IMG/VR virus record: IMGVR_UViG_3300047494_000100
Location: 1 to 64,000 of that record
Reading direction: 5' to 3' (one strand)
Origin: a virus
Length of the DNA stretch: 64,000 nucleotides
Shown here: piece after piece, positions 54,358 through 58,659 of the stretch
How the letters are laid out: each line of letters begins with the position of its first letter
Numbering within the stretch: the first letter of the stretch is position 1
Position numbers and translations under genes: made by a program
Notes under the pieces: model-generated
What the model was told of the DNA's origin: nothing
The model's database searches: none
What the model saw: the letters and a program-made list of their open reading frames with translations, nothing else

Positions 54358-54473
54358 CGTTCTAGTTCTCTATAAAATTCTCGATAGCGAGGATAATAGT
54401 TCCCATCTTGTGATTTGTAAAAACAATGCTCCCAAAAATCTTCTTTAAAGTTCTTTATTTGGGTCATAGCCAA
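54264..54473 (-). CDS. Questionable small ORF overlapping the polymerase start by ~94 nt
   Basis: Track ORF only. Confidence 0.2.
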   Translation of the reverse strand: MAMTQIKNFKEDFWEHCFYKSQDGNYYPRYREFYRELERCNSLSSLPTAPGRRQRFLSCLVGLLRNVSR

Positions 54474-54873
54474 AGGGATGTGGGTGGTTTATTTTATCAT
54501 CTGGAGAAGGGATGCCAGCAAATACTTTTTCATAAGCAGCTTTGTATTTTTCTTGAAGCTTTTTATCTTCGATGCTGTACTCAACACCAAATAATGTCGC
54601 AGACGGAGGTGTTCTTCCCTTTAATCCATGCACAACCTCTTTTGTGATTTCTGCTAAAGACTTATTTCTTTTACGTGATTCCAATTCAATATACTTCTCC
54701 AAAAAATGCTTTGCCTTCTCCAGATCCTCCACACCGTTCTTGTCCTTCCAACGGCAGACATATTTTGTAATTTGACCTTGGAAGTAATCTAGATTCTGAG
54801 CATCCACAAAATCCCAATGTTGAAATCCTTTTCCGTAGTGCTTTCCGCCGACCTGTCGTTCATTTGCACTCAT
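54445..54873 (-). CDS. DUF3310-family protein
   Basis: RQVGGKHYGKGFQHWDFVDAQNLDYFQGQITKYVCRWKDKNGVEDLEKAKHFLEKYIE fits the DUF3310 pattern. Confidence 0.65.
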   Translation of the reverse strand: MSANERQVGGKHYGKGFQHWDFVDAQNLDYFQGQITKYVCRWKDKNGVEDLEKAKHFLEKYIELESRKRNKSLAEITKEVVHGLKGRTPPSATLFGVEYSIEDKKLQEKYKAAYEKVFAGIPSPDDKINHPHPFGYDPNKEL

Positions 54874-55411
54874 TTTTTCCTCCTAAGAATTCATCTGCAT
54901 CTGGCAACCGTTCCCAATTAAAAGTCTCAAAAAATTCTACTATAGGTTGTGGTAACTTACCTTCATCTCTTCGTTTTGTGAGTTCAGTAAGCATTTTGCG
55001 TAGCACGTTTAAGATTATCCGATTTCCCATCTGCCCCTGCTCCACCACCCAGAGGAATAGTTCCATATAGTCACAGGCTTTCAACCATTGATATTCTTCC
55101 TCCGTTAAGTCATCTTGTAGGATATCTAATTGTGTTTCTGCCTTTGCTGCTAATATGTCTACACTTTCCCTTAATTGGGTGGACAACCCCAAGGCTGGGC
55201 TGGGTAAATCCCCCGTCCACCTCTCGTGGACATCATGCCAGAGTGCTGCTTCAATCAACGCTTTACTTGGGTTAGGGTGTAGAACTAATAGAAGGCTGGC
55301 CACACCATACCCATGCATGGCGTTATTGTATTCGCCCACATACATTAAGGTGTGGCAGCGTTTAACATACCCACCTTCACGGAGTCCGAGGATCTTTTGC
55401 ACGATACTCAT
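54860..55411 (-). CDS. HD-domain phosphohydrolase (YfbR-like 5'-deoxynucleotidase)
   Basis: H...HGYGVASL...ALWHDVHERWTGDLPSP. Confidence 0.65.
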   Translation of the reverse strand: MSIVQKILGLREGGYVKRCHTLMYVGEYNNAMHGYGVASLLLVLHPNPSKALIEAALWHDVHERWTGDLPSPALGLSTQLRESVDILAAKAETQLDILQDDLTEEEYQWLKACDYMELFLWVVEQGQMGNRIILNVLRKMLTELTKRRDEGKLPQPIVEFFETFNWERLPDADEFLGGKNECK

Positions 55412-55614
55412 AGATTTTCCTCATCTTCTTTGATCAATTTTTCGAGGTGGTCTATCTGGCTTTCAATTTTGCGATCCCATTCCAAGTACCATAAATAGAT
55501 CTCAGCTGAATGATTTCGAATTATTGTGTAAAGCACAATGAGGCAACTAAATATCACGGGAATGTCAATTGAGGGTTCCATTATCTTGCTCCATCTTCGT
55601 ATGTGTAGTTCCAA
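55408..55614 (-). CDS. Small membrane protein
   Basis: Hydrophobic segment IDIPVIFSCLIVLYTII. Confidence 0.4.
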   Translation of the reverse strand: MELHIRRWSKIMEPSIDIPVIFSCLIVLYTIIRNHSAEIYLWYLEWDRKIESQIDHLEKLIKEDEENL

Positions 55615-56042: not shown

Positions 56043-57010
56043 TCCTTACTCGCAATTGCCCAGTCGAACCTAAGATCCATCTGGTTGTCTATTATTTTTA
56101 TTGCTTCAGCCGTCTCACCTTTTTTGTGTGCCTTATGCGCGGCATACATAGGGGTTGCTACTTTCTTAAAGAATTTCGAACGGATGCCCACTTTGTAAGG
56201 ATCACTAAACCACATGTGTAAGTCTTCCGTCCATTCCTTAATGGGAGTGTCCACAATCCGTGTGGATTCTATACTTTCAGTCATGTAAGGGTTATACTGA
56301 ACGCGGTATGGGTCAGCACATCTATCGGCGAGGGGGGTTAAAGGAGTGAAGACGTTGAGGTATGCGTGATAGTCATTACTCATTTGCCAATACTTACCCA
56401 TAGAAACGCCGATGCCCATCGCGATATATTCTTGCAGAATGGAAAAGCAGACTGCGTTTGTATTATACGCTCCGAATAAAATGTCATTAGACCTATTACA
56501 AACAGTCATTTCTAATTCATTTTCTCTGTTGATAGAGAAATATACATGGGTGTTACAAGGAAAATCAACGCCTTTTTTACCTAGATCTCTGGTGGCGTCC
56601 CACATTTGAAGAACACAGCGGCGATTGTCTTTATTTGCGCTTAGTTCATCAATAATGATTTGAATCTGGTCAATTTTAAACCAGCTGCGCCAGCGCCTTC
56701 CATAACTTCCGTGAAATGTTTTTCCGTCGTCACTAAATTCTTTCATCTTTTTTGCGTATTGTGAGAGAAAGAAAACATCATCTCTCCCGGCAAGCAGGTA
56801 GATGGCTTCAAACAAATTAAGGAAAGGGTTGAAGTCTCTTTCCTCTCCAAAAATAACCCGTTCCCATGGATTTCCATATTCTGTCACAACTGGCCCATCC
56901 ATCTTTATTACACGCCCATAGCGGCTATCACGCTCGTAGCCGTTGCGGCAAAGCAAGCTTATACCTTCGGGCAATGCTGCATGAACATTGCGGACTTTAA
57001 GTATGTGCAT
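56018..57010 (-). CDS. Thymidylate synthase-like pyrimidine hydroxymethylase / methylase (ThyA superfamily)
   Basis: RNVHAALPEG...DSRYGRV, RDFNPFLNLFEAIYLLAG, VLQMWD, FPCNTHVYF (catalytic Cys), CNRSNDILFGAYNTNA. Substrate cannot be assigned by eye. Confidence 0.7.
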   Translation of the reverse strand: MHILKVRNVHAALPEGISLLCRNGYERDSRYGRVIKMDGPVVTEYGNPWERVIFGEERDFNPFLNLFEAIYLLAGRDDVFFLSQYAKKMKEFSDDGKTFHGSYGRRWRSWFKIDQIQIIIDELSANKDNRRCVLQMWDATRDLGKKGVDFPCNTHVYFSINRENELEMTVCNRSNDILFGAYNTNAVCFSILQEYIAMGIGVSMGKYWQMSNDYHAYLNVFTPLTPLADRCADPYRVQYNPYMTESIESTRIVDTPIKEWTEDLHMWFSDPYKVGIRSKFFKKVATPMYAAHKAHKKGETAEAIKIIDNQMDLRFDWAIASKEWLTRRLK

Positions 57011-57011
57011 T

Positions 57012-57884
57012 TTAAAACTTCCTCTTCATGTGGCCACCTTCTTGAGCTCTGCAATGCTTATCATGCTCACAATTTTGATTTTGCACCGTTTGAGCATCCC
57101 ATTTTGGCCACTCGTTTGGCCAATAGTTATTGTCTTTACTATACTCTATGAGCTCGACGAAATGCTTTATAATTTGTTTTTCGTCTTTTTCGCTTCCATA
57201 TTTAAATTTATTGACATCATTGTAGAATACACGGCCAATTCCACGTGTACTGCCGGGGCCAGGTTGCGCCCAAGTGTAGATGTCGGGGGCGTTTTCTAGG
57301 AGGCAGGTATACTGGGCATCGGCACAAATTTGATAACTTGTGAACCTACCAAGGAACGGCGAAGTTGTCAGCATTCCACAAGTTTCCTGCATTGAAGCTT
57401 TTCCCGATAGGATTTTATCCCAGTCGCCTTTTTGGAGTTTTTTATTGAATTCCTCTAAGCACCAAATGACACCATCAAGCTTTTTTAGCCCATCAGGAGT
57501 TTTGATAATGTATGCTCCTGTGACAAATGGTCCTTCCGGGTATTTTAAAAGAATTTGATCTCGTAGGTCGTTTAATGTTGATTCATTTTCTAAAGCTTCT
57601 TTTAAAACTCCACCAATTTCAATCTTATTGAACCAGCGGAAAGTGGTTATAGCCCCCAACGCCATCTCTGGGTCATCGCGGTATTTGTTTCGAATATTTT
57701 CACGAAACCATACTGTGGTCTTATCGTCTTCCCGAAAAACATTGCAGAATCTGTTTTTCTGGAAGATAGGATCCTGGCTCCATGGCTTAGGAAGCCCAGC
57801 ATCACGATTGAGTTTTATCTGGTAGCGTTCACGTGCAATGGCAAAGAACTTTGCTATACCTGCTTCAGACACTTTGTCTACCAA
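57012..57884 (-). CDS. Hypothetical protein, possibly of the aGPT-pyrophosphorylase-like base-hypermodification family
   Basis: PKPWSQDPIFQKNRFCNVFREDDKTTVWF resembles my recollection of that family. No P-loop. Gene context is a ThyA-like enzyme and a GT-like protein. Confidence 0.25.
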   Translation of the reverse strand: MVDKVSEAGIAKFFAIARERYQIKLNRDAGLPKPWSQDPIFQKNRFCNVFREDDKTTVWFRENIRNKYRDDPEMALGAITTFRWFNKIEIGGVLKEALENESTLNDLRDQILLKYPEGPFVTGAYIIKTPDGLKKLDGVIWCLEEFNKKLQKGDWDKILSGKASMQETCGMLTTSPFLGRFTSYQICADAQYTCLLENAPDIYTWAQPGPGSTRGIGRVFYNDVNKFKYGSEKDEKQIIKHFVELIEYSKDNNYWPNEWPKWDAQTVQNQNCEHDKHCRAQEGGHMKRKF

Positions 57885-58659
57885 ACTTTTCTAACCCTTC
57901 TTCATACGCTTTTTTCCAATAGCATATGACTTCGATGCGTTGCGCCATTTCATCTTTGCCTTTGTATTTTCGTTGCACAGCTTTCACAATTCCTGGGTGG
58001 AGTTGTTCAAGCATCAAGGCCTGTTCATTATTGTATTCGAGTGTGCGATAGGTACTTATCCCTCCCGGAGCATTGTATTTCTGACTAAAGAGTATCTCCG
58101 AACAAATGGTGTTTGGAAATCCTTTCTTTAGCAGTTGGAGAGTATAGTCAAAATCCTCACGAAATTCAATGCGCCCTAGCTCACAATGTCTGCGCATTAT
58201 CTCTGGGCGATAACCCAAGATGCATTGCATGCGGGAATTCTCGAACCAGCCTGCGGGGAGTTTGTCGTTATGGCGCCGAACACTTAGCCCAGCGTGAGCG
58301 TAACTGTCTAGTTTAGTAGACAGTTCCTCTAACCAGTATTCTAAATCTTCTGGAGAGGCAGCACGTGTCTTGCTATCCGGGTTATCAGCATCTCTCACTT
58401 CAAATGAAAGATCATCATCCATCATGACAATTTTGTCTTCGAGAATATTCTCCAAGATCCAGGCGCGTTTCTTCGCGATTCCTTTCACGGAATCCGGCCT
58501 GACCCAGAAGTCAATTCCTTTATACTCCGGTAATGCTGCAAATTCCTTTGCATCCTGATCATCAACGACAAAGACAGTGTCTTGTCGCCAACGGGGCGTA
58601 AGCATCCCAAACGTTGTTTGGGAGCTCACACGACGAAACGTAGGGATTAGTATTTTCAT
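57865..58659 (-). CDS. GT-A-like glycosyltransferase-like protein (start ATG 58659)
   Basis: MKILIPTFRRV..., VMMDDDLSF acidic motif. The upstream (GV)n extension in the track needs a TTG start without an SD. Confidence 0.4.
   Translation of the reverse strand: MKILIPTFRRVSSQTTFGMLTPRWRQDTVFVVDDQDAKEFAALPEYKGIDFWVRPDSVKGIAKKRAWILENILEDKIVMMDDDLSFEVRDADNPDSKTRAASPEDLEYWLEELSTKLDSYAHAGLSVRRHNDKLPAGWFENSRMQCILGYRPEIMRRHCELGRIEFREDFDYTLQLLKKGFPNTICSEILFSQKYNAPGGISTYRTLEYNNEQALMLEQLHPGIVKAVQRKYKGKDEMAQRIEVICYWKKAYEEGLEKFGRQSV

Follow-up and report, generated by a model that had tools for sequence, protein, structure and literature searches.

The 64,000-nt window analysed here (positions 1 to 64,000 of the IMG/VR virus record IMGVR_UViG_3300047494_000100) carries seven minus-strand genes, overlapping or abutting one another, which span 54445-58659 directly upstream of a family A DNA polymerase gene (polA). 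We consider it probable that this operon is a glycosyltransferase version of the Mesyanzhinovviridae-type module for thymidine replacement and hypermodification, in which 5-hydroxymethyldeoxyuridine (5-hmdU) is incorporated into phage DNA and is then O-glycosylated on the DNA. The module combines a TAGT-family glycosyltransferase (GT), a protein of the HMUDK_hel family, a thymidylate synthase homologue (ThyS), an HD-domain phosphohydrolase and a DUF3310 protein. A first-pass annotation, made from the letters alone, had proposed a kinase-less hydroxymethylpyrimidine cassette at this place, possibly a glycosylating one, and had suggested that it might differ from the systems described; the open reading frames (ORFs) were found at the coordinates it gave, contiguous and all on the minus strand, and the families, motifs and synteny set out below agree with such a cassette, while the suggested difference is not unique to this phage and already exists in phage PhiJL001.

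The glycosyltransferase

The GT belongs to the Pfam family TAGT (PF20691, E=4.5e-16, 59.8 bits, cutoff 27.5), matched phrog_842 in PHROGs (1e-35), and has a start codon that is backed by its homologues in two related loci, L006 and L007. All the family invariants of a 44-sequence alignment were kept (R10, R65, D81-D82-D83, H122, R128, D169 and G199-G200), and the AlphaFold2 (AF2) model (predicted local distance difference test, pLDDT, 94.6) has a GT-A fold; what had been called a GT-A-like protein is a TAGT with an intact DDD motif. A sequence search of the PDB returned nothing significant for the GT, and a scan of IMG/VR with its peptide patterns gave no close relatives of it. Phage TAGT-like GT-A enzymes have been reported to be structurally homologous to the base J glucosyltransferase of trypanosomes, and their genes to adjoin ThyS genes in metaviromes (bioRxiv 10.1101/2023.12.21.572611). 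The namesake partner of TAGT, a TET/JBP dioxygenase, was absent among the window ORFs scanned with Pfam, and the predicted hydroxymethyl source beside TAGT here is a ThyA homologue, not TET/JBP. From its family and its context, we predict that the GT is a DNA 5-hmdU O-glycosyltransferase.

The Foldseek matches of the GT model were GT-A enzymes, TarP, TarS and SpsA, at E~1e-6. The top ones, TarP and TarS, are wall-teichoic-acid GTs, and several public records label homologues of the ThyA-like protein plain 'thymidylate synthase', both of which would fit a set of ordinary nucleotide-metabolism genes with a GT that acts on a non-DNA acceptor, e.g. a host surface polymer, and no DNA hypermodification at all. 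We regard this as the least probable of the explanations considered, because the ThyA-like protein lies far below the equivalog cutoffs (see below), the GT is a Pfam TAGT member whose gene appears translationally coupled to HMUDK_hel, and the operon context with replication genes is kept across distant phages.

HMUDK_hel, the putative partner of the glycosyltransferase

The 290-aa protein encoded next to the GT is a member of HMUDK_hel (PF18723, formerly aGPT-Pplase clade 1; E=4.8e-38, 131.6 bits, cutoff 25, residues 11-281 of 290), and Pfam reported only this family for it and not PF18724 (AADT, aGPT-Pplase clade 2). Indeed, a Pfam scan assigned PaMx11 gp46 to PF18724 and PaMx11 gp50, the orthologue of the 290-aa protein (42% identity), to PF18723. 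The earlier comparison with the aGPT-pyrophosphorylase-like family was therefore right at the level of the superfamily, but the protein falls into clade 1 and not into clade 2, that of the transferase, and its orthologue M6 gp55 was dispensable for the formation of Nα-glycinylthymidine (Nα-GlyT) in vitro (PMC8989533). We found no paper giving clade 1 a function in the literature searched.

All invariants of the family in a 37-sequence alignment are present in the window protein: FCNVFREDD, RWFN, GPG(209-211)-x-x-RG and C272-E273-x-x-K276. HMUDK_hel is a large family of 5,313 representatives (50% identity, E<=1e-3), whose members almost always stand alone at ~290 aa; when fusions to a kinase or a GT were sought, the eight longer members had no second Pfam domain. 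The AF2 model (pLDDT 93.9) gave weak Foldseek matches (E>0.1), all of them helix-hairpin-helix (HhH) DNA glycosylases (OGG1, AlkA/MagIII, EndoIII) or AADT, with the best TM-score, 0.45, to the AADT gp46 structure 8z2n at E=0.9, and a sequence search of the PDB yielded nothing significant. The modelled fold fits, without proving it, a base-flipping and possibly covalent-catalytic protein.

HMUDK_hel sequences were not split by cluster type, PhiJL001 gp19 being 54% identical to PaMx11 gp50 and 42% to the window protein, so that HMUDK_hel can be counted, like ThyS, HD, the gp1.7-like kinase and PolA, in a conserved 5-hmdU core. In PaMx11 the kinase gene stands just upstream of HMUDK_hel, where TAGT is found here; the enzyme paired with HMUDK_hel is either a kinase, which acts on the hydroxymethyl oxygen, or a GT, which is predicted to do so. 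This swap from kinase to GT in the same slot argues that HMUDK_hel serves the hydroxymethyl-uracil substrate rather than the kinase. Moreover, the HMUDK_hel start overlaps the GT stop by 8-20 nt, depending on whether a GTG or a TTG start is used, an arrangement which points to translational coupling of the two genes.

An unlikely further possibility is that glycosylation is an activation step: Cys272 of HMUDK_hel would attack C6 of the O-substituted hydroxymethyluracil and expel the sugar, in the way that AADT expels phosphate, and would then either put a different group in its place or turn the base into thymine by reduction, and the mature DNA would then carry a non-glycoside or a mixture. 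The invariant C272-E273 aligns with the catalytic Cys of AADT gp46, Cys247 (PMC11472151), the fold is HhH-glycosylase/AADT-like, HMUDK_hel is tightly coupled to the enzyme that derivatises the hydroxymethyl oxygen, be it kinase or GT, and AADT chemistry itself loses the O-substituent to give an exocyclic methylene, which borohydride turns into thymidine (PMC8989533). However, a glycoside leaves poorly compared with a phosphate, the cassette has no genes that would supply a co-substrate, M6 gp55 was dispensable in vitro, and the AADT alignment is statistically weak, hhalign placing C272 on Cys247 at only 0.3% probability.

The ThyA-like enzyme and the pyrimidine it acts on

The ThyA-like protein matched PF00303 (E=3e-21, 76.2 bits, cutoff 24.3) and, over its full length, phrog_5131 'thymidylate synthase' (8.5e-112), and its DFPCN motif aligned with APCH of ThyA in MAFFT, in agreement with the ThyA superfamily membership and the catalytic Cys described before. 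The motif D-x-P-C-N was present in 79 of the 90 ThyA-like ORFs of HMUDK_hel loci. The protein stands apart from ordinary thymidylate synthases, being below every ThyA equivalog cutoff in NCBIfam (best TIGR03283, 90.9 vs 174.55 bits; other ThyA models 28.6-67.1 bits vs cutoffs of 108-427), and its full-length best matches are Mesyanzhinovviridae enzymes, with 45% identity over the full length to both PaMx11 gp51 and gp4 of the Yuavirus Lydia. By homology and by synteny with PaMx11 and Lydia, we infer that it is a dUMP hydroxymethylase.

The first-pass annotation had read GAYNTNA, where ThyA has GLPFNIA, as non-canonical at the base-specificity position; the specificity residue is, however, not lost. 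When the protein was aligned to solved ThyA structures with HMMER and to PaMx11 gp51, Lydia gp4, PhiJL001 gp24 and metagenomic relatives with MAFFT, the last Asn of GAYNTNA fell on ThyA Asn177 (the PFN motif) after a 1-residue insertion. The family consensus G-A-Y-G-A-N(-A) carries the same insertion, nearly all of the 90 ORFs have the motif, and it was indistinguishable between kinase-type loci, for which experiments have established 5-hmdU as the intermediate, and TAGT-type loci. A non-canonical specificity residue as the sign of a new base was therefore rejected, since the insertion is family-wide and the Asn is kept. The CMP hydroxymethylase MilA, which is cytosine-specific, has Asp at this position in the HMMER alignment; T4 gp42 presumably has Asp there as well, and MAFFT put that Asp one column away. 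Because the specificity Asn is conserved, the pyrimidine is almost certainly uracil and not cytosine.

This bears on a T-even style of modification, with the ThyA-like protein as a dCMP hydroxymethylase and 5-hydroxymethylcytosine (hmC) as the substrate of TAGT. TAGT homologues in T6-like and Klebsiella phages do adjoin dCMP hydroxymethylases, the window has no dCMP deaminase, and atypical residues flank the specificity Asn. We nevertheless consider hmC highly improbable: the Asn itself is shared with ThyA, PaMx11 and YuA/M6-group homologues while MilA has Asp, the best full-length matches are the Mesyanzhinovviridae enzymes, HMUDK_hel is a marker of 5-hmdU systems, and no dCTPase was found.

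Absence of kinase and AADT, and recurrence in other phages

A Walker A regular expression run over the 64-kb window yielded no plausible ORF for a P-loop kinase, tblastn with PaMx11 gp49 (the kinase) gave nothing in the window, and Pfam scans of the other window ORFs returned no kinase, AADT or TET/JBP family, so the earlier observation that a P-loop 5-hmdU DNA kinase is missing holds within the window. Likewise, tblastn with PaMx11 gp46 (AADT), gp47, gp48 and dCMP deaminase found nothing in the window, and no homologues of the FAD lyase and the acetyltransferase of the PaMx11 pathway were present in it.

The same kinase-less arrangement was found in other phages. The GTs of L006 and L007 are 69-70% identical to the window GT, and both loci keep the 159-aa protein that leads the cluster (p159), TAGT, HMUDK_hel, ThyS, HD, DUF3310 and PolA, with no kinase or AADT within 10 kb on either side. 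L008 (GT 49%) and L009 (GT 40%, on 57 contigs) also keep HMUDK_hel, TAGT and ThyS, and L009 carries a nucleotidyltransferase gene near TAGT. Between HMUDK_hel and ThyS, L006 has NAD salvage genes at 11694-14340 (PRPP synthetase, DUF7831 and NAMPT) and L007 has a GIY-YIG endonuclease at the same junction; the shared position of these inserts suggests that the HMUDK_hel/ThyS junction is an insertion hotspot. The complete 63.6-kb genome of PhiJL001 (AY576273) encodes a p159-like protein (gp18), HMUDK_hel (gp19), TAGT (gp22, 2.7e-53), Nmad5 (gp23) and a ThyA-like protein (gp24), in a module that also holds HD, DUF3310, Pol and dCMP deaminase; the whole genome is without kinase or AADT homologues and without small P-loop ORFs. 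In addition, the actinophage LuckyBarnes has the order ThyS, TAGT, TAGT, HMUDK_hel.

To count the two types, 80 IMG/VR loci were collected through the HMUDK_hel profile alone, annotated with locally built hidden Markov models (HMMs) and de-replicated at 90% identity; the counts were taken over the 34 clusters flanked by 6 kb or more on each side, TAGT-fetched loci being excluded as biasing. Kinase and AADT occurred together in 13 of the 34 clusters, TAGT only in 12, kinase only in 5, TAGT with kinase in 3, and neither in 1. TAGT and kinase were negatively associated (Fisher p=9e-6), and AADT was found in 0/15 clusters with TAGT against 13/19 without it (Fisher p=4e-5), both p-values being indicative only, as they overstate independence because the loci are phylogenetically related. 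TAGT and kinase/AADT are thus nearly mutually exclusive in the census. Although the name HMUDK_hel implies association with a kinase, the kinase-less TAGT type made up 12 of the 34 well-flanked clusters, and the HMUDK_hel plus TAGT architecture is a widespread class, not unique to this phage. Three IMG/VR loci (L028, L073 and L075) had the order HMUDK_hel, TAGT, P-loop kinase, TAGT, ThyS without AADT, and these may make phosphorylated or doubly glycosylated hydroxymethyluracil (hmU).

About 15 kb of the 79,349-bp source record lies beyond the window, and since 64,000 bp of it were seen, a classical kinase plus AADT pathway could formally be encoded there, with the GT adding a further decoration, as the occurrence of TAGT and kinase near HMUDK_hel in L028, L073 and L075 would allow. 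We judge this very unlikely: the kinase lies beside HMUDK_hel in every kinase-type locus (at <=300 nt in 33/47 clusters, the figure for TAGT being 11/23, both in a larger set of 71 clusters which includes TAGT-fetched loci and is TAGT-enriched), and TAGT fills that slot here; no kinase or AADT was found within 10 kb in L006 and L007 or in the complete PhiJL001; and AADT never accompanied TAGT in the census.

Comparison with known systems

The M6/YuA and PaMx11 clusters make 5-aminoethyldeoxyuridine (5-NedU) and 5-acetylaminomethyldeoxyuridine (5-AcNmdU) (Lee et al. 2018, PMC5889632; Lee et al. 2021/22, PMC8989533). The pathway of PaMx11 and M6 has been reconstituted from 5-hmdU through 5-phosphomethyldeoxyuridine (5-PmdU) to Nα-GlyT: a 5-hmdU DNA kinase (gp49/gp54) makes 5-PmdU, the clade 2 AADT (gp46/gp51) swaps the phosphate for glycine, and tailoring follows (PMC8989533). 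The window shares with them the order p159-like, HMUDK_hel, ThyA homologue, HD, gp1.7-like kinase, PolA, nuclease, primase-helicase, and apparently the same pre-replicative 5-hmdU logic. Amino-acid identity to PaMx11 and to Lydia, which belongs with YuA to the genus Yuavirus and is a near relative of M6, was 51-52% for the primase-helicase, 50-52% for PolA, 46% for the nuclease, 39-41% for HD, 45% for the ThyA-like enzyme and 42% for HMUDK_hel. However, the window lacks the P-loop 5-hmdU DNA kinase, the PF18724 AADT and the tailoring enzymes (pyridoxal phosphate, PLP; radical S-adenosylmethionine, rSAM; FAD; acetyltransferase), has TAGT in the slot of the kinase, and has as its predicted product an O-glycoside and not an amino-acid-derived adduct.

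Similar systems are found in PhiJL001, an Alphaproteobacteria phage (Keylargovirus, gp18-gp28), with the kinase-less HMUDK_hel, TAGT and ThyA-like trio near PolA and with a p159-like gene, HD and DUF3310, and the Brevibacterium phage LuckyBarnes (gp38-gp41), with the same trio next to PolA. They differ from the window in that amino-acid identity is only 28-42%, in that PhiJL001 has Nmad5 and dCMP deaminase, both absent from the window, and in that LuckyBarnes has two TAGT paralogues. In the AY576273 record, the PhiJL001 genes are annotated as a glucosyl transferase and as a thymidylate synthase that resembles the SPO1 dUMP hydroxymethylase.

Predicted O-glucosylation of hydroxymethyluracil in DNA by a GT-A enzyme is also the likeness to kinetoplastid base J (JBP1/2 plus the base J glucosyltransferase, JGT), from which the window differs in that hmU would be made before replication, at the nucleotide level, by a ThyA homologue rather than from T oxidised within the DNA, the window ORFs scanned include no TET/JBP, sequence identity to JGT was undetectable by the methods used, and the role would be anti-restriction, not transcriptional. 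With T-even hmC glucosylation and the phage 5mYOX (TET)-GT systems it shares a hydroxymethylpyrimidine that is then met by a DNA glycosyltransferase (PMC8256090; Pyle et al. 2024), and with T6 the TAGT family itself, to which the beta-glucosyl-HMC alpha-glucosyltransferase belongs; here, however, the base would be uracil-derived, there is the extra conserved HMUDK_hel, and the base itself has to be modified by one GT alone. A bulk count of ThyS plus GT-A neighbourhoods in metaviromes framed them as cytosine sugar pathways (Pyle et al.), and a route to hmU hypermodification has been proposed for phage T-dioxygenases that occur with GTs (PMC13229309). The literature searched contained no report of glycosylated 5-hmdU in phage DNA, nor did it describe HMUDK_hel paired with TAGT in place of the kinase, or the near mutual exclusion between this pairing and the kinase/AADT type.

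Proposed pathway

By homology, the ThyA-like enzyme would convert dUMP to 5-hydroxymethyl-dUMP (hm-dUMP), which the gp1.7-like DUF3310 kinase, together with a host NDP kinase, would take to hm-dUTP, while the HD phosphohydrolase may remove competing dT or dU nucleotides. The adjacent PolA would then put 5-hmdU into phage DNA, as in the M6, PaMx11 and SPO1 paradigms. After replication, TAGT is predicted to move a sugar from an NDP-sugar onto the 5-CH2OH of 5-hmdU in DNA, a step suggested by its family, its context and the structural likeness reported between phage GT-A enzymes and the base J glucosyltransferase; UDP-glucose is our default assumption for the donor. The resulting glycosyl-5-hmdU would resemble base J and protect the DNA against host nucleases. 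HMUDK_hel may bind or flip 5-hmdU in DNA and cooperate with whichever enzyme, kinase or GT, works on the hydroxymethyl oxygen, as the slot swap and the apparent translational coupling suggest, and its invariant Cys272-Glu273 hints that it may perform covalent C6 chemistry of its own. Such a modular two-component arrangement would explain why clade 1 is conserved despite its dispensability in vitro. The full form of this proposal, with glycosyl-hmU made genome-wide by the pre-replicative route and a catalytically active, Cys272-dependent, 5-hmdU-flipping HMUDK_hel that pairs interchangeably with a DNA kinase or a GT, is doubtful in our view.

Several points weigh against the glycosylated 5-hmdU reading. 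In addition to the relatedness of the census loci and the part of the record beyond the window, the window lacks the dCMP deaminase that PaMx11, Lydia and PhiJL001 carry, and the N-T in place of G-A before the specificity Asn is unique to this phage among the 90 ThyA-like ORFs. The one TAGT-family member characterised in T-even phages, that of the T6 type, acts on glucosyl-hmC, to which it attaches a second glucose (PMC13390438), so that direct action of TAGT on the base is something we infer. The role given to HMUDK_hel is speculative, as M6 gp55 is not needed and the likeness to AADT is weak. The literature searched contained no nucleoside analysis for PhiJL001, LuckyBarnes or any TAGT-type relative.

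Gene layout and the smaller genes

The positions of the features are given in Table 1. Stop/start overlap or abutment continues throughout the stretch from the GT to the DUF3310 gene, an operon-like arrangement, and the gap between the DUF3310 gene and polA is 87 nt. The cassette had no nucleotide-level match when it was compared by megablast with 50,697 phage records. A 13-kb Logan contig (L095; ERR9963749) is an independent sample of the same phage.

Table 1. Genes and other elements of the region upstream of polA, listed in the direction of transcription.
Feature	Position in window	Strand	Family, source or remark
TROVE/vWA protein	59653-60960	minus	first in transcription order of the region
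159-aa conserved cluster-leading protein (p159)	59134-59613	minus	family of PhiJL001 gp18 and PaMx11 gp45
86-aa ORF	58840-59100	minus	between p159 and the hexanucleotide array
Hexanucleotide array, 138 nt	58661-58798	minus	Tandem Repeats Finder (TRF)
TAGT-family GT-A glycosyltransferase, 264 aa, start MKILIP	57865-58659	minus	PF20691
HMUDK_hel, 290 aa from TTG or 286 aa from GTG 57872	57012-57884	minus	PF18723
ThyA-superfamily enzyme, 330 aa, predicted dUMP hydroxymethylase	56018-57010	minus	PF00303, phrog_5131
153-aa ORF without family match	55581-56042	minus	ORF list
68-aa ORF	55408-55614	minus	ORF list
HD-domain phosphohydrolase, YfbR-like 5'-deoxynucleotidase family, 183 aa	54860-55411	minus	PF12917
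DUF3310 protein, T7 gp1.7-like nucleotide kinase, 142 aa	54445-54873	minus	PF11753
Family A DNA polymerase with 3'-5' exonuclease, 671 aa	52342-54357	minus	PF00476, PF01612

The HD protein, described before as 5'-deoxynucleotidase-like, belongs at family level to PF12917 (E=1.4e-7, 31.9 bits, cutoff 25.9) and matched phrog_6047 (7.4e-45), but fell short of the NCBIfam 5'-deoxynucleotidase equivalog (23.2 bits, cutoff 122), and is placed, by sequence, within the YfbR-like superfamily; it is 41% identical to PaMx11 gp52, and an HD gene was present in 70 HMUDK_hel loci. The DUF3310 protein matched PF11753 (E=2.4e-7, 31.1 bits, cutoff 24), as annotated, and several 'nucleotide kinase' phrogs (phrog_236 at 2.5e-20), and its Lydia orthologue is annotated 'nucleotide kinase gp1.7; T7-like'; it would be an hm-dUMP kinase. 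The polymerase matched PF00476 at 2e-39 as well as PF01612.

The 153-aa ORF had no Pfam, PHROG or NCBIfam match, no counterpart in L007 and only a 49-aa ORF at its position in L006, and it was present in L095; it is a lineage-specific insert that is not kept in relatives. The 68-aa ORF was called as 57 aa in L095. In tblastn, p159 matched PhiJL001 gp18 (8e-16) and PaMx11 gp45 (1e-4), and its family, which has no Pfam match, heads both kinase-type and GT-type clusters (44 ORFs by iterated HMM). Its members (window 59134-59613; L002 5719-6213; L005 7553-8008) share the N-terminal motif ..LV..YN..TGK.IKKF.DR..A..R and differ in their winged-helix-like C-terminal halves, and p159 might regulate the cluster by binding DNA.

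The array (GGGGTC/GCGGTC) x23 (TRF: period 6, 23 copies, 96% matches) borders the GT start codon on its 5' side and is in frame with it; in its place L006 and L007 have a hairpin and an AT-rich spacer, and the array is lineage-specific. Its proximal part also forms the end of L095 (positions 1-30), and since this contig ends inside the array, the array is suggested to be variable in length or assembly-breaking. It has G-quadruplex potential on the mRNA-like strand. Because the hairpin that precedes the GT in these closest relatives has a T-run, the GT appears to open a transcription unit.

Just upstream of the module is the gene of the TROVE/Ro60-like plus vWA protein, also found in L006. Near it, in the region 61000-61350, a tRNA T-arm-like hairpin, GTGTGGTTCGAATCCACAC, lies at 61170-61188 on the minus strand, which was uncalled by ARAGORN and by Rfam at the gathering threshold and might belong to a Y-RNA/YrlA-like partner.

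Other features of the window

The structural region contains two group I introns close to each other on the minus strand (18382-18693 and 18826-19109; Rfam RF00028, 60.9 and 77.3 bits), adjoined by a GIY-YIG ORF on the plus strand (19349-19954). Seven tRNA genes are clustered at 21368-22060, six of them with ARAGORN anticodons (Gln, His, Pro, Leu x2, Tyr) and the seventh (21368-21440) called by Rfam only, and a second tRNA-Pro is located at 39994-40065. In the tail/structural region, a GNAT acetyltransferase gene (8527-8997) overlaps that of an Asp/Asn beta-hydroxylase-like 2-oxoglutarate oxygenase (8985-9578); both were considered as members of the cassette and rejected, as they are in the structural region and have no similarity to PaMx11 gp48. 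Two further Pfam matches in the window were a SET domain and a Lar restriction-alleviation protein. A long (AGC)n-type tandem repeat of 9-12 nt (45522-45744) is inside a 267-aa ORF without Pfam match (45420-46223), which is adjoined by a T4 endoV-like pyrimidine-dimer glycosylase (45022-45417), and a perfect 60-nt direct repeat of 2.3 copies occupies 1-139 of the window.

Significance of the glycosyltransferase-type module

If the proposed glycosylation of 5-hmdU is right, a major sugar-based branch of thymidine hypermodification exists beside the amino-acid/polyamine branch, and base-J-type chemistry occurs in bacteriophages through a non-oxidative, pre-replicative route. Among the HMUDK_hel-bearing viral contigs sampled, the sugar type is about as common as the kinase/AADT type, and it has cultured relatives in PhiJL001 and LuckyBarnes. 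TAGT-type enzymes could be used to label 5-hmU in DNA, and the modification would alter the restriction, CRISPR and sequencing behaviour of such phage genomes.

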